Assembly (NCBI GenBank): GCA_965200245.1
Contig: CBDATS010000002.1
Location: forward strand, 64,001-128,000
Source: a bacterium
GTDB lineage: Bacteria > UBA8248
Length of the DNA: 64,000 nt
Direction of reading: 5' to 3'
The position numbers were made by a program, and so were the translations under genes. Below the pieces are notes generated by a model. It was not told the origin of the DNA. It worked only from the letters and a program-made list of their open reading frames with translations, and searched no databases. Positions 6,422-60,651 of this stretch are shown in pieces. How positions within the stretch are numbered: the first letter of the stretch is position 1; each line of letters begins with the position of its first letter.

Positions 6422-7531
6422 TACCGGACTTCCAGGTTCAGGTCACGGGCCCCTATGAGCGTTTCTCCGGTAAACGTTGCGGCTTCCTTGTGTCCTGTAT
6501 TCCCGTTACAAAAGAGGTGGTGAATAGAGAGATCCTCAGGCGCATCCTTAAAGGCGTCTATCGCCGCGTCGATAAACTCTCCGCTATGCGTCGTTGCCAT
6601 AAACTGCGTGTTCCATTGGTCCATCCACTCTCGAGCCCGGTCCCATATTTCTCGTTGTGCGGAATGATGGATTCCGTTTTCCATCTCATCAACCAGCAAA
6701 ATACCGTCCCGGGAGGCGGAAAAGCTGAGTAGCAACCGAACCAGCCTGACGGCACCATCCCCAAGATCGTGAACCGGTAGCCGCCTCCCGTTCTCCATCA
6801 CCACCGACAGATAAGGCTCTCTGGTGTCGTTGGTCAGAATCTCCGCATCCGCGATTTTCTGCGCAAGCAGGTTGACGGCGACCTGCAATTCTTTCTTGCG
6901 GCCCTCTCTAACCAGATTGGAGTATTGATGTAGGTATTCGGCAGGGGTCTCAAGTTGAAACTTGGTGCTTTGGATAATACAAGCAGGCCGTCCAACGGGC
7001 TTTTTCTCCGACAGAAGCACCGTGCCTTGGGGTGTTATCTGGAAAGTGTCGGTGCCCTTCACGATTTCGTCGTCAATGTAGGTATGGATACGTCCCCGCA
7101 CGGGCGACAGGTTTGCCAGACTCTCTTGTGAAGCTCCACTAGTCCCTAGGTTTGGTGGTGGAGGTGGTGGGGGGTGGTGGCTCTACCGTTTGCATAGCAC
7201 CGCCGGCCCCCGGGCTTGGCGAGACGCTCTCAAACTTCTGGAAGACCCATTTCAATTTGTGATGAGTTCCGTCCTCCTGACCGTGAAGTTCCAATTCGCG
7301 GTCAGTCAGTCTGGAAATGGGATCGAGAGTGGGCATGGGAGGACGTTGGACTTTCAAATTCCACAGTATGCTGGGATTGAATCGGCCCGTAAACAGCCAT
7401 ATTGCCTCGATCAAAGCTGTCTTGCCGACCCCATTTGCACCGGTAATCAGATTGGCCTTAGACAGATGACGCAAAGAGAGGCCGTCGATACCGCGGAAGC
7501 GAACGGCGTTGAAACTATTCAATTGAACCAT
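6421..7531 (-). CDS. AAA_15/AAA_21 (ABC-like) ATPase with a single-base frameshift
   Basis: Walker A GANGVGKT in 7139-7531. Signature LGDG, Walker B LLVDEMENGIH and ATTHS in 6421-7101. Removing one base of the G6 run (7169-7174) fuses the ORFs through a P9 linker. Confidence 0.8.
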
Positions 7532-8512
7532 TGCATTTCTCCGTCAACCCCACCATCTAGCCGAGCGACTCCGGCAGGGCTATACAGTTTAATGGTAGTG
7601 TTCGGAACACATGTCCGTCAAGGTGAATGACCAAGCGGCCAGTTTGCTGGTCCACCGAACCGCGCTTTGGTGAACCAACGTGGAACGTCCCAAGATAACC
7701 TGCCCGCACGAATGCATATACTTTGTCATCTCATTGGTGATGCCATAAAACGCCCGCTCCGGGGACCTGTCGCTGTTGCGTGTTCGCCACCCCCGCGCGG
7801 CGCAAACCGGAAAACGCAGGCTCACTTCCACAACTCTCGGCGGGATGCAAGCACCGATGATCCATCGTCTCAGGCGGGCAGATGCGTGTCAAATATGGAT
7901 TGACGGCCAAAAAATATGCGAAAACAGCGGCCGAAAATAGCCAATTTCATATCGGGTTTCTGCTCAATTTCCAACACCTAAGTTCGACGTTTTCCCGCTC
8001 AAAAAAACGGGGCATTCTGAATACGGGTTGATCATATGATGAAAGGCGGCGATTCGGGGTCGCCGCCCACGAGAACACAGGGATATCCGTACTTCCCCCG
8101 CGGCGAATCATATCCTCCGGCCATCCCCAGCGGGCGATCCCAAGGGCGAACTCCGGCTCAAACGCTCCTCGCCGGCGGCTCTGACCTCGACCCCAGGGAT
8201 GGACATGGCGGGCACGCCACGCTCCACGTACTACTGTAGGCAGGTTCTGTTGCGGCTGATGGCAATGTATATGGCCACGAGGGCAAGCTCATGTCGCCAG
8301 GGGAATCCTTGAACCTCGACTTGCGCGGCTTACAACTGAGCGTCTCTTTTTTGTTTTCATCCGTGTGGTTTCCTTTCAATTTTATCAAATCCCCGCGCAG
8401 CAGGCAGTAGACGGAAACACGTATGGAACCAAGCCACAGGAGATCCCCTACCAAAACTCGTTGTCTGTGGTATGTTTTATGAGACAGCTTCCAGACAGAC
8501 AGAGGAGTAAAT

Positions 8513-54850: not shown

Positions 54851-54946
54851 GTCGTCTTCTCCTGTGATTGAATGTCCGAGGATTTACTGAATCCGGTATA
54901 CACCGGGCTACGAAAACCCTAAAAATCCACTTCGTCTCGACCGGTG

Positions 54947-55399
54947 CTAGATGCTCACCTGGAATTTCGGCAGGCGTACACCCGGACCGGTCGGAGACGC
55001 GCTTAATTCCTCGAGTGTGGTTTCGCGCAGTGTCTTGTCGATGGCGTTCTCAAGTTTCTTCCACAAAATGCGGCTCCCGCACAAGGGGATGTTCGGGCAC
55101 GGCACCGAGGGAGGTTCATCGCCACAATTGACGGGCTGAATCGTCTCTCCCACGGCGGAGAGAACGTCATGCATATTGATCTCTGGGGGCGGCAGGGCGA
55201 GGATGTAGCCGCCTCCCGGCCCCCGTGTGCTGCTTACCAGAGAAGCCCTGCGCATCTTTACGAACAATTGCTCCAGATAGTGCTGGCTGATTGCAAGTTT
55301 GCCGGCTATCTGCGGCAGGGGAACGGGGTGCGTTTGCGAATGCCGAGCCAGTTCAATCATGGCAAGCACGGCGTAGCGGCCCTTGGTGGATATCTTCAT
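54947..55399 (-). CDS. Rrf2-family regulator (IscR/CymR-like) with three Cys
   Basis: MKISTKGRYA, YLEQLF, STRGPGGGY and C-x8-C-x5-C. Confidence 0.9.
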   Translation of the reverse strand: MKISTKGRYAVLAMIELARHSQTHPVPLPQIAGKLAISQHYLEQLFVKMRRASLVSSTRGPGGGYILALPPPEINMHDVLSAVGETIQPVNCGDEPPSVPCPNIPLCGSRILWKKLENAIDKTLRETTLEELSASPTGPGVRLPKFQVSI

Positions 55400-55433
55400 C
55401 GTTGGCATCCTCTCATTGGGCGTCCGGGTCTCA

Positions 55434-56171
55434 TTACTGAACGAACGCTGCACGCTTTACGGGAATTCCGGTTGCGCGCTTCCTTGCGAGTGCGCAGACC
55501 GGACAATCCGGATCCTGGACGACATGCACACCACCCAAGGAGTTGTTCCAGAATTCGGCTGTCATCAGCTTGTTCAACCAGGCGGGTGTGAGACCCCTGA
55601 GAACCCGGAGAGCGTCAGCGGCCTGCGCCATCCCCACGAAACCGGCTACCGCTCCGAAAACACCCGCATCCCCGCAATCGAGACCACGTGCGTCCGCACC
55701 CTCCTCGCCCACCAGACAGCGCAGGCAAGCACTCTCGCCGGGCAGAATCGTCATCACCTGGCCGAAAAAACGCAAGACGCCTCCCATAACCCATGGCTTG
55801 CCCGTTGCGGCGCAGGCATGGTTCAGGGCGAACTTGGCAGCCAGGTTATCGCTTCCATCGATCACAACATCATATGGTGCGATGATGCGGGCGGCGTTCT
55901 CGCGCGTGATCCTTTGGGGAATCTTGTCCACCCCAACCTCGGCGGATAGCCTGAATATGGAATCGGCGCCGGAGTCCACTTTCAATCGGCCGACATCTTC
56001 TGTTCGGTGGAGAATCTGGCGCGCGAGGTTATCGAGAGTCACGACGTCGTGGTCCGCAAGCCCAATGCGCCCCACTCCTGATGCCGCCAGGGTAAGCGCG
56101 GCAGGACAGCCCAAACCCCCGACTCCGACGATGAGGGCAGATGAACTATCGAGAGTTTTTTCATCTCTCAC
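55434..56171 (-). CDS. ThiF/MoeB E1-like adenylyltransferase lacking the N-terminal RYxR helix
   Basis: GVGGLG, DHDVVTLDNLARQ, DGSDN, CLRC, DCGDAGV and CPVC motifs. GTG start overlaps the JAMM stop (GTGA) with a GAGGAGG RBS. Confidence 0.9.
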   Translation of the reverse strand: MRDEKTLDSSSALIVGVGGLGCPAALTLAASGVGRIGLADHDVVTLDNLARQILHRTEDVGRLKVDSGADSIFRLSAEVGVDKIPQRITRENAARIIAPYDVVIDGSDNLAAKFALNHACAATGKPWVMGGVLRFFGQVMTILPGESACLRCLVGEEGADARGLDCGDAGVFGAVAGFVGMAQAADALRVLRGLTPAWLNKLMTAEFWNNSLGGVHVVQDPDCPVCALARKRATGIPVKRAAFVQ

Positions 56172-56662
56172 GCACCCGCCTCCTCATATATCTCAAGTTC
56201 GCTTTCGATGAACGTCTTTTGCCCCGCGTTCCAGGAGTAAACCTTCTGACCAAGCACCACGCCCTCACGCACACTCATGACGATGTGCTCTGCATCCGGG
56301 AACGCGGGAATGTCCCCGAAAGGAACCGCCGCGTCCTCGTCTTCTTGTGAAAAATAGGCGTCCTCGTCCGGGTGGCTGTGAAAAATGCCGCGAACCACCT
56401 CGCCCGCCTCCTCGGCACGCCTCACGATGCGCTCGAACTCAAAGGGGTCGATGAGAAAAGCGCGCCGCGCCGTACGGGGGTAGAATTCCGGGTCCTTCGC
56501 GTGCATCTCGTTCTGGACGTTCCTGCACGGCAAAAGCTGGAGCGCCTCTGTTTTGTGCCCTTTCGCAGACGGCGGCCCGATAATCAGCCCGCAACACTCA
56601 TCGGGATATGTCTCGCGTGCGTGGCGGTGCATCAGTTCCACCTGTTCACGGTTCAGACGCAA
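56168..56662 (-). CDS. JAMM/M67 metalloprotease (Mec-like)
   Basis: YPDECCG and FHSHPDEDAYFSQED (HxH-x7-S-x2-D). Confidence 0.9.
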   Translation of the reverse strand: MRLNREQVELMHRHARETYPDECCGLIIGPPSAKGHKTEALQLLPCRNVQNEMHAKDPEFYPRTARRAFLIDPFEFERIVRRAEEAGEVVRGIFHSHPDEDAYFSQEDEDAAVPFGDIPAFPDAEHIVMSVREGVVLGQKVYSWNAGQKTFIESELEIYEEAGA

Positions 56663-56674
56663 CTCGATACTCCC

Positions 56675-57613
56675 TTAACGTGCTTCGCTCAGGTACCTGT
56701 CCCCACCGTCGGGGAACAAGGTGACGATCACACCCTTGCCAATTCGCTTCGCCACTTCGCGCACGCCCACGAGTGCGGCACCCGCCGAGTGGCCGATGAA
56801 GAGTCCCTCTTCCCTGACGATACGCTCGGCGAGATCGTAGCTCTCCTCGGTACCCGCCAGTATCAGGTGTTCGTGGACACTCTCATCATAAATTCCCGGT
56901 CGAATGGCCGTGGGAATATGCTTCATGCCTTCCAGGCCGTGAAACGACTCTGCCGGCATGACCGCATGCACCACGACATCCGGCTTCCTCGCCTTGAGGC
57001 CACGTCCCGTGCCTACAAGCGTTCCCGTAGTGCCAAGACCAGCGACGAAATGATCGACGCGCCCACCGGTCTGATCCAGAATCTCGATCGCCGTCGTCTC
57101 GACGTGGGCGAGAGGGTTGGCGGGATTGTCGTATTGACAAGGCAGAAAATATTTCTCCGGCTCCTCGCCATGCATCTTTGCAGCGAGACGCTGCGCGCCG
57201 TCCGATCCTTCCAGGGGATCGGAAAAAACGATGTCGGCCCCGTAGCCCTTGAGCGTCGCCTTGCGCTCGTCACTCGCATTCGCAGGCAGGACAAGGCGCA
57301 CGGGAATCCCGAGCGCTGCTCCAATCATGGCGTAGGCGATGCCCGTGTTCCCGCTCGTGGAATCGAGCAGAACCTTGCCGGGGCGCAACTGTCCCGTTTC
57401 CAGACCGTCTTTCACCATGAAGAGCGCCGGCCTGTCCTTCACCGAGCCGCCCGGGTTGAACCATTCCGCCTTGGCGTAGACTTTCACATCGGGATATTCA
57501 CTCTCGAACAACTTGATCTTGAGCAGCGGAGTGTTGCCGATGCATTTGATGATTGGGGAATCCTCCAGATTCCGGAACGCGCTCGCGGGATTTTCCACCG
57601 TCGATTCGACCAT
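56675..57613 (-). CDS. cysM: Cysteine synthase, CysM-type
   Basis: NPGGSVKDR, STSGNTG, GLGTTGT and PDGGDRYLS motifs. Confidence 0.85.
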   Translation of the reverse strand: MVESTVENPASAFRNLEDSPIIKCIGNTPLLKIKLFESEYPDVKVYAKAEWFNPGGSVKDRPALFMVKDGLETGQLRPGKVLLDSTSGNTGIAYAMIGAALGIPVRLVLPANASDERKATLKGYGADIVFSDPLEGSDGAQRLAAKMHGEEPEKYFLPCQYDNPANPLAHVETTAIEILDQTGGRVDHFVAGLGTTGTLVGTGRGLKARKPDVVVHAVMPAESFHGLEGMKHIPTAIRPGIYDESVHEHLILAGTEESYDLAERIVREEGLFIGHSAGAALVGVREVAKRIGKGVIVTLFPDGGDRYLSEAR

Positions 57614-57646
57614 CGATATGGCCCTCGCACTTTGCTCCTGAAAACT

Positions 57647-58297
57647 TCAGGAAAGGTTCGCACGCGCTTCCAGCAAGCCGTGCGAAAAATCGAAACGGGC
57701 CTGAGCGGTCGACCCCACCGTATCCTCAGCATCCAGCAGGCGACGCAGGACCTTCGCAGCCATCCATGCACCCATCGCCCCTTGTGTCGCCACGTTGTGC
57801 GCTCCCCCGTCGCGAGGGGCTCCGCACAATTCCCCCATAGATCCGGTATCCTCTGCGACCTCACCCGTCTCGCCCCGGGAGACGCCCACAAGCGTAATGT
57901 TCGCCGAAGCCGCGAGCCTCTCGAAATCCGCGGACATCCCTTTGCCCAACCAGAGGAGAGCTTCGAAAGCATCTCCCGCTTCCTCGACTGTTCGAAAGGA
58001 AACCAGTCCGGCATCCGGATTGAGACTCCATATGCCATCTTCCAGAGAACAACCCAGAAAGGCGGTGAGTGGAAGGTTTCTTCCAGGTTCGCCTTTCTCG
58101 TTCATCGCAAGCCGACCGATGCGGCCCACTCCTGCAGCGGCCAGATAGATCAGGGCCACAGACGCAGCGTTATCCTCATCTTCCGAATAGGCGACCAGTA
58201 CAGAAGAAGTCAGTAATCGTTCCTGCCCGGCTCCTCCGACACCCGGGAGCAGAACGTGTCGGCTGTAGCGCTGAATCTGCTCTTCGCTCAAGCCCAA
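57647..58297 (-). CDS. Degenerate ThiF/MoeB paralog (pseudo-E1) retaining RYSRH
   Basis: LSEEQIQRYSRHVLLPGVGGAGQERL, YLAAAGVG, LNPD and the GAMGAWMAAKVL helix are kept. GxGxxG, DxD/NLxRQ and CxxC pairs are absent. TTG start with AAGGAG RBS. Confidence 0.75.
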   Translation of the reverse strand: MGLSEEQIQRYSRHVLLPGVGGAGQERLLTSSVLVAYSEDEDNAASVALIYLAAAGVGRIGRLAMNEKGEPGRNLPLTAFLGCSLEDGIWSLNPDAGLVSFRTVEEAGDAFEALLWLGKGMSADFERLAASANITLVGVSRGETGEVAEDTGSMGELCGAPRDGGAHNVATQGAMGAWMAAKVLRRLLDAEDTVGSTAQARFDFSHGLLEARANLS

Positions 58298-58331
58298 TGG
58301 GCGATTCTCCTTCCTGTGGTTTTGCGGACGT

Positions 58332-58610
58332 TTAGCGACCACCCGCAATGGCCGGTACAATGGAGACCTCGTCCTGGTCGCTTACCGCAGTTCCCTCGCC
58401 CTGCAGGAACCGGATGTCCTCCTGGTTCACGTAAATGTTCACGAAACGGCGCAGCTTGCCTTCTTCGTCATAGAGGCGCTGGCCAATGCCCGTGAACTGG
58501 CTTTCGAGGTTCGCGAGCACTTCCTTCACGTCTGCGCCCTCGATCTCTACAGCGTCCTGCTGCTGGGTGAATTCTTGCAAGGGTGTGGGAATAAGGACTG
58601 TTACCGCCAT
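58332..58610 (-). CDS. Ubiquitin-like sulfur carrier (MoaD/CysO family) ending ...AGG-R
   Basis: [23 protein letters not shown] and IVPAIAGGR motifs. Confidence 0.9.
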
Positions 58611-58664
58611 ATCTCTCTCCTGATCTGAAAACCCCGCCTTTCGGGGATGCCGAAAATAGAATTT

Positions 58665-59624
58665 CTAACGAAAATGCTGTTCCAGACTATAATACCTCTC
58701 CCAGCCGTCGGGAATGACGACCACCACATTTTCCTCAGGACTCATCCGACGCGCAATCTGCAGGGCAGTGGAAACCGCTGCGCCCGCCGAAATGCCGACA
58801 GCCATGCCCTCCTCGCGGCCCAGGGCCTTGCACATGTCGTATGCGTCTGAATCGTTTACCGGCACGACCTCATCGATGATCGCGCGGTTCAGTACCGCAG
58901 GGACGAAACCCGCACCGATACCCTGAATCTGGTGCGGTCCCGGCTCGCCGCCCGAGAGAACTGCGGACGCGGCGGGCTCGACGCCGACGATCAGGGTTTC
59001 CGGTTTCTTTTCTTTCAGGACCTCTCCCACGCCCGTAATAGTGCCTCCCGTCCCCACACCCGCCACGAAGGCGTCCACCGGCTCCGCGCCCATGTCGCGC
59101 AATATCTCGCGCGCCGTGGTTCTGCGGTGAATCTCCGGGTTGGCCAGATTGTTGAACTGCTGCGGCATGAAATAGTCCGGGTTCTCCTCCAGAATGGTTT
59201 CGGCCATCACGAGGGAGCCGTACATTCCGCCCTCGCTTGAACTGAATACCACCTCAGCCCCATAGCCCGTGAGCAGGGAATTCCGCTCATGACTCATGCT
59301 ATTGCTAAGCACAATGATCGTCCTGTAGCCGCGAATCGCACCGATGAGTGCCAGGCCTATCCCCGTATTGCCGCTCGTGGGTTCGATGATCGTCCCGCCG
59401 GGTTTCAGGAGGCCGCGCCGCTCTCCGTCGAGCACCATGCTGAGCGCAATGCGATCCTTCACACTGCCGCCGGGGTTGTATTGCTCAAGTTTCGCGAACA
59501 CGCGCGCACCAGATGTGTCGGGCAAACGCTGCAACTGGACGAGGCTCGTGCTCCCGATGCGATCGATGAGCGAGGGAAGTGCCCTCAGAATCTGGGGCGG
59601 ACGGCCCCGCGTACCCAATGCCAT
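58665..59624 (-). CDS. cysK: Cysteine synthase A
   Basis: NPGGSVKDRIA, EPTSGNTG, GVGTGGT, HQIQGIGAGF and GISAGA motifs. Confidence 0.85.
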   Translation of the reverse strand: MALGTRGRPPQILRALPSLIDRIGSTSLVQLQRLPDTSGARVFAKLEQYNPGGSVKDRIALSMVLDGERRGLLKPGGTIIEPTSGNTGIGLALIGAIRGYRTIIVLSNSMSHERNSLLTGYGAEVVFSSSEGGMYGSLVMAETILEENPDYFMPQQFNNLANPEIHRRTTAREILRDMGAEPVDAFVAGVGTGGTITGVGEVLKEKKPETLIVGVEPAASAVLSGGEPGPHQIQGIGAGFVPAVLNRAIIDEVVPVNDSDAYDMCKALGREEGMAVGISAGAAVSTALQIARRMSPEENVVVVIPDGWERYYSLEQHFR

Positions 59625-59669
59625 AAGTATGTCCTTCTGAATATTTTCACATAGACCCAGACGAGCCCG

Positions 59670-59704
59670 AGACTATAATTCCCAAACAAAACTGTCAAGA
59701 ATTA
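59670..59704 (-). promoter_or_regulatory. Sigma70 promoter of the cys operon overlapped by an Rrf2-type imperfect palindrome
   Basis: Minus strand TTGACA-N17-TAGTCT inside TAATTC-TTGACAGTTTTGTTTGG-GAATTA. Confidence 0.6.
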
Positions 59705-59829
59705 CCACTTAAAGGGTTTTTTCGTTTTTTCTTGCCCTCGTCATATTTCCGACATACTCCCAATATATCCTTGGTGTGTTACATTCTCATATCGCACCGT
59801 CTAATGATACGAGGCGAGAGGAGAAAGAC

Positions 59830-60651
59830 ATGGAGAAACCCGGGAGCGCTCCACCCATCGCACTCACGATAGCGGGCTCGGACTCCGGCGGCGGAGCCGG
59901 GATTCAGGCCGATCTCAAGACCTTCAGCGCGTTCGGCGTATACGGTGCCTCGATCATCACTGCACTTACTGCGCAAAACAGCGTCGGCGTTCAGGGGGTA
60001 CACGCCGTTCCTCCCGATTTCATCGGGATGCAATTCGATTCGGTATGTACGGATTTCGAAGTCGCGAGCGCGAAAATCGGCATGCTCGCCACGGTCGAGG
60101 TTATCGAGGTAGTGGCCGGAAAACTCGAGGAACACGCTTTGGCGCGCGTCGTACTCGACCCGGTAATGGTCGCCAAAAGCGGCGACCGCCTCCTGGCACC
60201 CGATGCGAGAGGCGCGCTCGTTGCTCGCCTCTTTCCGCTGGCTGAGGTCATCACCCCCAACACAGAAGAAGCGTGCGACATTCTGGAGATCGGGAAAATA
60301 GAAAACCTCGAACAGATGAAGAAGGCTGCCCGTGCCCTCCACGAGCAAGGGGCGAAATGCGTGTTGCTAAAGGGAGGCCACATCACCGACGGGGCGGTGG
60401 ACATCCTGTTCGACGGAGAAAACGAGATCGCGCTCGCAGGCAGGCGCATCGACACTCCGCACACCCACGGAACCGGATGCACACTATCCTCCGCCATTGC
60501 GGCGGGGCTGGCGATGGGAGATTCCACCATCGAGGCCGTGAGACGAGCGAAAGATTTTATTCAGGGCGCCATCGAGAACGCGCTCGCTATCGGGAACGGC
60601 AGGGGCCCACTCAATCACATGTACCGCCAAAACGAAAGGAAATTCCGATAA
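59830..60651 (+). CDS. thiD: Hydroxymethylpyrimidine/phosphomethylpyrimidine kinase
   Basis: IAGSDSGGGAGIQADLKT, KIGML, DPVMVAKSG, KGGH and HTHGTGCT motifs. Confidence 0.95.
   Translation: MEKPGSAPPIALTIAGSDSGGGAGIQADLKTFSAFGVYGASIITALTAQNSVGVQGVHAVPPDFIGMQFDSVCTDFEVASAKIGMLATVEVIEVVAGKLEEHALARVVLDPVMVAKSGDRLLAPDARGALVARLFPLAEVITPNTEEACDILEIGKIENLEQMKKAARALHEQGAKCVLLKGGHITDGAVDILFDGENEIALAGRRIDTPHTHGTGCTLSSAIAAGLAMGDSTIEAVRRAKDFIQGAIENALAIGNGRGPLNHMYRQNERKFR

Follow-up and report, generated by a model that had tools for sequence, protein, structure and literature searches.

A candidate active/inactive E1-type heterodimer encoded by two ThiF paralogs in a cysteine-carrier operon of Nitrospinaceae

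Why should a compact bacterial operon carry two ThiF/MoeB paralogs, neither of which has the complete set of features of its family? The question is raised by a 64,000-nucleotide (nt) stretch of bacterial DNA (positions 64,001 to 128,000 of contig CBDATS010000002.1, assembly GCA_965200245.1), which is called the window below. On its minus strand, at 54947-59624, lie seven tightly packed genes in the order cysK-like, ThiS-like carrier, pseudoE1, cysM-like, JAMM, short ThiF and Rrf2. "PseudoE1" is used here as a label for the motif-less ThiF paralog, and "short ThiF" for the N-truncated one. The reading that we favour, and regard as fairly probable, is that the two products form an obligate heterodimer whose single active site is dedicated to the carrier protein of the same operon.

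Anatomy of the two ThiF paralogs

The two genes and the sites within them that matter for the argument are as follows. A3 and A4 denote the family alignments of short ThiF and pseudoE1, respectively.

57647..58297, minus strand: pseudoE1, a predicted catalytically dead ThiF/MoeB paralog of 216 amino acids (aa); TTG start, ribosome-binding site GGAAGGAG; assigned from its sequence, alignments, and fold and profile matches
58256..58270, minus strand: pseudoE1 codons R10-Y11-S12-R13-H14, in the N-terminal RYxRQ-type helix
58166..58192, minus strand: pseudoE1 AYSEDEDNA, residues 36-44, by alignment at the place of the GxGGxG nucleotide loop
58013..58021, minus strand: pseudoE1 N93-P94-D95 (LNPD motif), invariant in 27/27 pseudoE1 rows; residues 91-94 lie in the predicted interface
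55434..56171, minus strand: short ThiF, an active-looking ThiF/MoeB adenylyltransferase of 245 aa; PF00899, 209.1 bits; without the RYxRQ helix, the NPD motif and a rhodanese domain
56109..56126, minus strand: short ThiF nucleotide-binding loop G16-V-G-G-L-G21; G16, G18 and G21 invariant in A3
55674..55676, minus strand: short ThiF Cys166, within LDCGDAGV; invariant in A3 and aligned with CQE[AG]G of full-length ThiFs, the place of the CQEAGV cysteine

The motifs that define activity in MoeB and ThiF are GxGxxG, NLxRQ, DxxDN, two CxxC pairs and the cysteine before AGV. The translation of short ThiF contains GVGGLG, DHDVVTLDNLARQ, DGSDN, CLRC, CPVC and LDCGDAGV, and these catalytic and zinc motifs are invariant or nearly so in A3. 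By profile search its domain content is PF00899 alone (cut-off 28.1 bits), with no rhodanese domain and no inserted catalytic-cysteine domain. This match covers only profile positions 15-238 of 238, and the match to the 250-position MoeB model NF004281 starts at position 28, so that only about a dozen residues precede the first strand. Its GTG start codon and the TGA stop of the JAMM gene overlap (GTGA), with GAGGAGG upstream. A longer frame, or a fusion with JAMM, was considered and is ruled out, since no such frame exists among the open reading frames (ORFs) of the window. The motif R[YF]xR[QH] was found in the ThiF frame, up to 240 nt upstream, at 0 of 30 orthologous loci; the lone upstream match, at locus L136, sits in another frame. 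The junction itself varies: where the window has the GTGA overlap, 13 loci have a spacer between JAMM and short ThiF, of 72-75 nt (L114, L115, L118-L120, L122-L124, L126-L129) or 51 nt (L130). No RYxRQ or ThiF-like motif was found when these 13 spacers were read in frame.

PseudoE1 starts with MGLSEEQIQRYSRHVLLPGVGG, the N-terminal helix of MoeB-type proteins, and retains RYSRH, YLAAAGVGRIG and LNPD. RY[SA][RH]H occurs in all 27 rows of A4, where R10, Y11, S12 and H14 are invariant and R13 is an arginine in 26; by alignment to the E. coli sequences, we take R13 to be the equivalent of Arg14 of MoeB and Arg11 of ThiF. The dimer helices are conserved in the same alignment (YLAAAGVG, G173, G176, A180). 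At the place of the nucleotide loop the protein reads AYSEDEDNA instead of GxGGxG; the consensus of this region in the window's genus (g1) is SxxEExAA, and the other genera have a 3-residue insertion there. The catalytic motifs (DxD..NLxRQ, DGSDN/DxxDN, the CxxC pair and CxxAGV) are absent from the window copy and the f1-family orthologs in the alignments. The tail has a family-specific VGSTAQARFD with no counterpart in MoeB, and residues 192-216, which are within the predicted complex interface, have a predicted local distance difference test score (pLDDT) below 50 in the monomer model.

A Pfam search gave no match to pseudoE1 at E <= 0.01, and the NCBIfam MoeB/MoeZ models match only its N-terminal ~60 residues (19-86 of the scanned 237-aa frame), at no more than 45 bits and far under their cut-offs. 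Structure and profile comparisons reach further. The monomer model, made from 27 orthologs, has a pLDDT of 70.9 and a predicted template modelling score of 0.71, and in Foldseek it finds ThiF (1zud, E 2.8e-8) and MoeB (1jwa, 6.1e-8), both at probability 1.00, with Uba4 also among the best matches and the inactive subunits SAE1 (1y8q_A) and APPBP1 (1yov_A) lower down. The A4 profile against PDB sequences gives Uba4 (1.6e-12), ThiF (2.4e-10) and MoeB (9.5e-9), spanning up to residues 2-187, and hhalign joins A4 with A3 at 90.7% probability. Judged by these matches of profile and model, pseudoE1 is a diverged ThiF/MoeB-fold protein that shares descent with the family. A protein search returned about fifty pseudoE1 clusters of 210-219 aa at 50-65% identity, none of them with a Pfam domain, and two clusters at 40-43% identity (P0059, P0061) that still match PF00899. 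The sole source name among the matches of the family is 'hypothetical protein [Nitrospinae bacterium]'.

The losses in the two proteins mirror each other. NPD is present in 27/27 pseudoE1 rows against 0/27 short ThiF rows; at this place short ThiF has LSAEV, LAPGV and similar, full-length ThiFs have LNPD or LNPN, and the short ThiF of genome G009, described below, has LNPA. As far as the alignments tell, the losses are thus complementary twice, since both the helix and the NPD loop are kept by pseudoE1 and shed by short ThiF. The residues that act catalytically in cis show the reverse pattern, kept in short ThiF and gone from pseudoE1. On sequence and model together, the operon has one dead and one live adenylation module of a common fold. 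The first-pass annotation, made from the letters of the window, had described just this arrangement: a short ThiF with all motifs and no RYxRQ helix, and a second, uninterrupted 216-aa ORF that keeps RYSRH and LNPD and has lost the catalytic motifs. The sequence agrees with its coordinates, starts, ribosome-binding sites and GTGA overlap; the translation, the profile starts at 15 and 28 and the 0/30 upstream motifs agree with its account of short ThiF; and the alignments and the missing Pfam match agree with that of pseudoE1.

Distribution, selection and history of the pair

The survey set consisted of 51 species genomes of the window's phylum. An intact, full-length pseudoE1 is found in 30 of them, all in the window's family, Nitrospinaceae, and in five genera (21/23 genomes in the window's genus, 2/4 in g2, 1/1 in g3, 1/1 in g7 and 5/5 in g9). 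The frames are 210-234 aa long and have no internal stops in the 30 genomes (the TGA listed for G041 is the end of the ORF), which is more than chance would give. Both genes are present in 30 genomes, pseudoE1 only in one, short ThiF only in none, and neither in 20; the contigs of the pseudoE1-only genome, G022, end before the place of short ThiF. Orthologs of short ThiF (at least 49% identity, genome-wide search) are confined to genomes with pseudoE1; the co-occurrence of a truncated and a motif-less ThiF, which the first-pass annotation had put forward as a functional pairing, extends well outside the window. Gene order is as in the window at 29/29 places where one contig spans both genes (the window and 28 loci), with the same start of short ThiF. 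In 11 same-family genomes with neither gene, the order cysK-carrier-cysM-JAMM-Rrf2 is kept without pseudoE1 or short ThiF. Two loci are irregular in other respects. Locus L151 (G038) has, at 7476-7640 between carrier and JAMM, only a C-terminal cysM fragment (residues 243-312, 47% identity), which is a broken gene or an assembly fault. Genome G029 has two full operon copies (L122, L127) on separate contigs with differing pseudoE1; its contamination is 16%, and probably two strains share one bin.

Because related genomes are not independent, the presence/absence pattern was placed on an operon tree built from four flanking proteins, for which no root was inferred. Five changes are needed, of which at least four are forced by well-supported branches. 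Since the outermost genome has both genes, the changes are read most simply as repeated joint losses. Nearly all genomes also have a ThiF paralog at 36-41% identity to short ThiF in a frame of ~400 aa, which in the window's genome is a rhodanese-ThiF. The pair is accessory and has been dropped repeatedly, presumably because rhodanese-ThiF can charge the carrier. For genome G000 the places are C8 181519-182229 (L001) and C4 727325-728026 (L003); it has a rhodanese-ThiF in a 418-aa frame and a second, weaker ThiF-family match in a 470-aa frame.

Selection on the two genes was compared with that on their neighbours. The proteins of the window and of the 16 closest loci in its genus are identical at ~89-94% of positions for cysK, cysM and carrier, ~85% for JAMM, ~80% for short ThiF and 55-63% for pseudoE1; at three more distant same-genus loci (L129-L131) the identity is ~10 points lower for every gene. 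Median dN/dS (Nei-Gojobori, 190-210 pairs) is 0.08 for cysK, 0.08 for carrier, 0.09 for cysM, 0.12 for JAMM, 0.12 for Rrf2, 0.21 for short ThiF and 0.34 for pseudoE1. Pooled over nine non-overlapping pairs with a codon bootstrap (1000), omega of pseudoE1 is 0.34 (95% confidence interval, CI, 0.28-0.40; highest bootstrap 0.44). Within the protein, residues 1-62, which include the RYSRH helix, have an omega of 0.14 (CI 0.08-0.21), the dead core 0.42 (CI 0.35-0.52) and the C-terminal part 0.38 (0.25-0.55). PseudoE1 is therefore under purifying selection throughout, and its N-terminal part is constrained like an enzyme; neutral evolution, by which the first-pass annotation would have fallen, was not seen. 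A faster decay of the window's own copy was considered and rejected, since its higher dN (0.31 vs ~0.18) comes with a higher dS, leaving omega unchanged at 0.34.

The history of the pair can be followed in part outside Nitrospinaceae. In G009, from another family (f3) of the same order, the operon is split over two contigs. Its upstream ThiF keeps RYARH, GLGGVG, LNPD and both CxxC pairs and is without the DxD/NLxRQ and DxxDN stretches and the active cysteine, and N-truncation is already present in its downstream ThiF. A ThiF tree places pseudoE1 proteins including the G009 copy in one clade (100/99) and short ThiFs including that of G009 in another (100/99); G009 is outermost in both clades, and deeper branches are unresolved. 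Loci L024 and L079, from other lineages, have two full-length ThiFs at comparable operon positions, which suggests, from sequence and gene position, that the operon had a two-ThiF ancestor. A derivation of pseudoE1 from the upstream and of short ThiF from the downstream ThiF of an L024-type operon would fit the gene order, but the deep branches of the tree are open and it is not claimed. Two DsrE/DsrF-like genes and a TusA gene lie between the full-length ThiFs of L024 (6859-7508, 9015-9293), which suggests a persulfide relay without counterpart in the window's operon. Many loci of Nitrospira and others match only residues 1-114 of pseudoE1 (~35% identity) and were set aside; two carrier-adjacent cases among them, L024 and L079, are the full-length ThiFs just described, and the rest look like ordinary rhodanese-ThiF.

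Duplication followed by complementary loss is the route long assumed for the origin of the eukaryotic E1s. The clade could be a living stepwise record of that route, from a homodimeric MoeB/ThiF-type enzyme to an obligate active/inactive heterodimer, and we give this proposal a little less than an even chance. The proposed stages would be two full-length ThiFs (L024, L079), a half-dead copy (G009) with nucleotide loop and zinc site kept, fully dead copies in five genera and, in the window's genus, an acidic plug in the old ATP loop. The live partner would shed, throughout, those elements that it had presented to a site no longer existing. The joint losses, seen repeatedly, would then reflect a true dependence of pseudoE1 and short ThiF on each other.

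The predicted complex and the competing explanations

Complex prediction was run on the two family alignments, with three runs and three controls. The model of pseudoE1 with short ThiF has an interface score (ipSAE) of 0.91 in each of the three runs, against 0.00 for the best of the three controls; the runs share at least 91% of contacts, and partner pLDDT is at least 78. The pass mark of the method was met by 58/80 solved complexes and 2/110 mismatched pairs, a calibration that holds only roughly with custom alignments. The predicted interface takes in pseudoE1 residues 6, 9-14, 16-18 and 20 (the helix), 43-56, 76-94 (with NP), 169-185 and 200-213, and short ThiF residues 23-31, 46-58 (LDNLARQILHRTE, the NLARQ stretch with the ATP-binding Arg of NLxRQ), 168-189 and 194-214. 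PseudoE1 residues 9-14 come to lie beside the NLARQ stretch of short ThiF. Within pseudoE1, conservation is higher at interface residues than elsewhere (0.79 vs 0.66; Mann-Whitney p = 1e-4). The model supports binding, short of showing it; in our judgement the two proteins quite probably bind each other, which is likelier than the favoured reading as a whole.

In mycobacteria, the mec-cysO-cysM genes provide a carrier-thiocarboxylate path to cysteine. On the favoured reading, the operon would be such a carrier-protein route, with a CysO-like carrier, a CysM-like synthase and a JAMM protease, and it would bring its own carrier-activating enzyme, divided between two paralogous genes. Short ThiF has every element that acts on its own site (nucleotide loop, Arg/Lys/Asp residues, zinc site, conserved cysteine) and has lost the two that face a partner, namely the RYxRQ helix with its arginine finger and the NPD loop. 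PseudoE1 is its mirror image, predicted to be unable to bind ATP or to adenylate, with helix, NPD loop and dimer helices held under strong constraint. In the resulting pseudo-symmetric heterodimer, pseudoE1 would take the role of the inactive domain of NAE1, SAE1 or BilD and would complete or cover the ATP site of short ThiF. JAMM would remove the residue behind the GG of the carrier, and short ThiF would then adenylate the carrier. Of this account, the anatomy, conservation, co-occurrence and fold are what the data show; binding, the single active site, the part of the arginine and the sulfur donor are inferred.

The part played by the arginine is a separate matter. ThiF Arg11 and MoeB Arg14 are described, in passages of PMC13139853, as arginine fingers that come from the neighbouring subunit and are not essential, and E. 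coli TcdA as an enzyme without the finger. The first-pass annotation had relied on donation of MoeB Arg14 in trans; its origin in the neighbouring subunit stands on these passages, and its being needed by the partner is weakened by them. According to passages of PMC10557695, the inactive part does supply a key arginine in eukaryotic E1s, as had also been claimed. That the pseudoE1 arginine itself matters is possible, though we rather doubt it, because the finger is non-essential elsewhere, R13 is His in two sister genomes, and short ThiF is without the whole helix.

Several observations weigh against the favoured reading. The pair is dispensable, having been lost at least four times while the rest of the operon stayed, and a rhodanese-ThiF is encoded elsewhere in every genome but two. 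PseudoE1 has evolved three to four times faster than its operon neighbours. R13 is His in G046 and G050 (L135, one of the 27 A4 rows, and its sister locus L137), and the window's own pseudoE1 reads GRLAM (58108-58113, residues 62-63) where most same-genus orthologs read GWCPL, so that W62-C63 is missing. Since the finger of MoeB and ThiF is called non-essential and TcdA has none (passages of PMC13139853), an N-truncated ThiF may work alone, and short ThiF may still form a homodimer. As to the model, the MoeB, ThiF and SAE dimers are solved structures, so the complex score may reflect likeness and not affinity, and the test of interface conservation is confounded by burial and by sequence relatedness.

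What, then, could explain the pair otherwise? The alternative that survives best, which we still consider unlikely, is that the heterodimer is real but pseudoE1 is a scaffold or regulator that does not complete the site, with the arginine incidental; the result might be a half-of-sites enzyme, or pseudoE1 might offer CysM, JAMM or the sulfur donor a surface to dock on, or might restrain short ThiF. The non-essential finger of MoeB and ThiF (passages of PMC13139853) and the His of L135 and L137 would fit this, as would the tail VGSTAQARFD, for which MoeB offers no counterpart. With no rhodanese domain in short ThiF, sulfur must come from some partner, and Cys63 in GWCPL is conserved in most same-genus orthologs; yet Cys63 is absent from the window's own copy. 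Nor would a scaffold be expected to be most constrained in residues 1-62 (omega 0.14), where the RYSRH helix lies, or to keep NPD invariant opposite a partner that lost exactly helix and NPD. Joint loss every time is unexpected for an inhibitor and its target.

It is considerably less probable that short ThiF is an ordinary homodimer and that pseudoE1 has a separate job in the pathway, for example binding the carrier or its adduct, without contact between the two. Finger-less enzymes of the ThiF family exist (TcdA, in passages of PMC13139853), a common phyletic pattern may arise between genes of one pathway whose products do not bind, and likeness to solved dimers can be enough for a complex model to pass. 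Such proteins would have to be present both or neither while the other genes of the pathway persist, and the conserved dimer helices of pseudoE1 do not suit this explanation; in proteins that never meet one would hardly expect NPD and helix to be lost in a complementary way. Finally, a functionless, decaying thiF duplicate carried inside the operon would account for the fastest-evolving gene (omega 0.34 vs 0.08-0.22) with all catalytic motifs gone, but it is highly improbable given frames of 210-234 aa that are intact and stop-free in 30 genomes of five genera, a bootstrap ceiling of 0.44 with a CI of 0.35-0.52 even in the dead core, and clean absence, jointly with short ThiF, wherever the gene was lost.

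The obligate heterodimer is thus the reading that we retain. In the first-pass annotation it had been proposed as an active/inactive pair paralleling the eukaryotic enzymes. The pairing has gained support from co-occurrence (30 genomes with both genes, one with pseudoE1 only, none with short ThiF only, 20 with neither), from selection (omega 0.34, CI 0.28-0.40) and from the model (0.91 vs 0.00 for controls, with the RYSRH helix within the interface), whereas the parallel is not the first of its kind in bacteria, because BilD is already an inactive/active pair in one chain.

The operon, related systems and significance

The other five genes of the operon are the following.

58665..59624, minus strand: cysK-like cysteine synthase, operon gene 1; PF00291, 250.5 bits; TIGR01139 cysK, 395.1 bits (above the cut-off of 350.95)
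58332..58610, minus strand: ThiS/MoaD-fold sulfur-carrier protein (CysO-like), 92 aa; PF02597 ThiS, 64.6 bits (cut-off 22.5); C-terminus AIAGGR
56675..57613, minus strand: cysM-like cysteine synthase dependent on pyridoxal phosphate (PLP); PF00291, 216.8 bits; TIGR01138 cysM, 337.8 bits (below the equivalog cut-off of 394.2)
56168..56662, minus strand: JAMM/Prok-JAB metalloprotease, Mec+-like by gene context; PF14464, 69.4 bits (cut-off 25); its stop overlaps the start of short ThiF
54947..55453, minus strand: Rrf2-family regulator (IscR/CymR-like), last operon gene; PF02082, 119.3 bits, match from residue 21

By sequence match, the CysO/CysM/Mec+ gene set is complete in one operon: the carrier has the ThiS fold and a C-terminal GG, the PLP enzyme is of the CysM type, and the protease belongs to the JAMM family. 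From this gene content and by analogy, the chemistry would comprise a carrier thiocarboxylate, O-phosphoserine and hydrolysis of a carrier-Cys adduct. Every carrier (window and L114-L156) has GG followed by one freely varying residue (R, L, G, D, F, H, I, V), and a few have two; this ending is the same in genomes with and without the E1 pair, and fits a trimming by JAMM that would be obligatory before activation. No E2-like gene was found among the seven operon genes scanned. The position of the cysK-like gene is unchanged in all related loci. The true start of the Rrf2 gene is probably downstream of its first possible start, as relatives align from residue 2-19. Divergent from the operon lies a ThiD phosphomethylpyrimidine kinase (PF08543, 321 bits; 59776-60651, plus strand), and the other flanks hold a VTT/DedA-type membrane protein, a GFO/IDH/MocA oxidoreductase, two cupins, a methyltransferase, an M20 peptidase and a DUF3417-phosphorylase. 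DNA near-identical to window positions 54900-59700 is found in runs X1-X7, labelled sponge metagenome or organism A (two studies). In two RNA libraries of one study, contigs identical to the window cover parts of the operon, among them 57848-58656, which spans the carrier/pseudoE1 junction. These contigs hint only weakly at transcription, as DNA carry-over is possible and this DNA may itself come from that study; RNA-library bins without cover carry no meaning.

How does the pair relate to enzymes already known? E. coli MoeB-MoaD and ThiF-ThiS (1jwa, 1zud) are of the same fold and family, and the substrate of the pair would likewise be a ThiS-fold carrier with GG. Those enzymes are homodimers with two identical sites, as passages of PMC12355090 have it, whereas here two genes each keep half the features, so that a dimer would have at most one working site. 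Comparable in plan are NAE1(APPBP1)-UBA3 (NAE) and SAE1(AOS1)-UBA2 (SAE), which passages of the same source describe as pseudo-symmetric heterodimers of separate inactive and active subunits with one active site. Unlike NAE and SAE, the operon pair lacks a catalytic-cysteine domain, a ubiquitin-fold domain and an E2, and nothing points to conjugation; its products are of 216 and 245 aa, its context is cysteine synthesis, and its split arose independently, within Nitrospinaceae.

Among bacteria, E1-like proteins known in 2023, before BilD, were homodimers, according to passages of PMC10557695. In BilD, from the antiviral BilABCD operons, a single chain is described there as combining two adenylation domains, one inactive and one active; as in eukaryotic E1s, the inactive one places an arginine (Arg9) in the active site. 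BilD is thus a bacterial inactive/active pseudo-dimer as well, but it is one polypeptide with a mobile Cys domain and an E2 and serves defence, whereas the operon pair is two polypeptides, with two genes between, no E2 and a metabolic context. Yeast Tcd1-Tcd2, which acts in the formation of ct6A, is a heterodimer of mutually dependent ThiF-family paralogs, in which one is catalytic and the other, Tcd1, gives the non-essential finger Arg59 to Tcd2 (passages of PMC13139853); it differs in being eukaryotic, in its tRNA substrate and in its unrelated origin. The mycobacterial mec-cysO-cysM system (PMC3227635) shares the carrier-thiocarboxylate cysteine route, the CysM-type synthase and the JAMM protease. 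Mycobacteria have a MoeZR, and Nitrospinaceae genomes also hold a rhodanese-ThiF. In mycobacteria this single, rhodanese-fused enzyme is encoded elsewhere, whereas Nitrospinaceae add an operon-borne, rhodanese-less E1 pair, present in some genomes only. In the openly readable literature we found neither a bacterial inactive/active ThiF pair encoded by two genes nor an account of the Nitrospinota operon; PMC10839748 does not mention ThiF or MoeB, and nothing on a trans arginine was found in PMC7527816.

If the favoured reading is true, a two-gene version of the inactive/active design in an ordinary sulfur-carrier pathway would mean that the asymmetric E1 arises readily and independently. The pair with its carrier (216 + 245 + 92 aa; orthologs from 34% to 65% identity and one intermediate) would be a small, tractable system for the contribution of an inactive subunit, and the annotation of the family would be corrected from 'hypothetical protein'. 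For Nitrospinaceae, it points to an accessory, dispensable route by which the cysteine carrier is charged.

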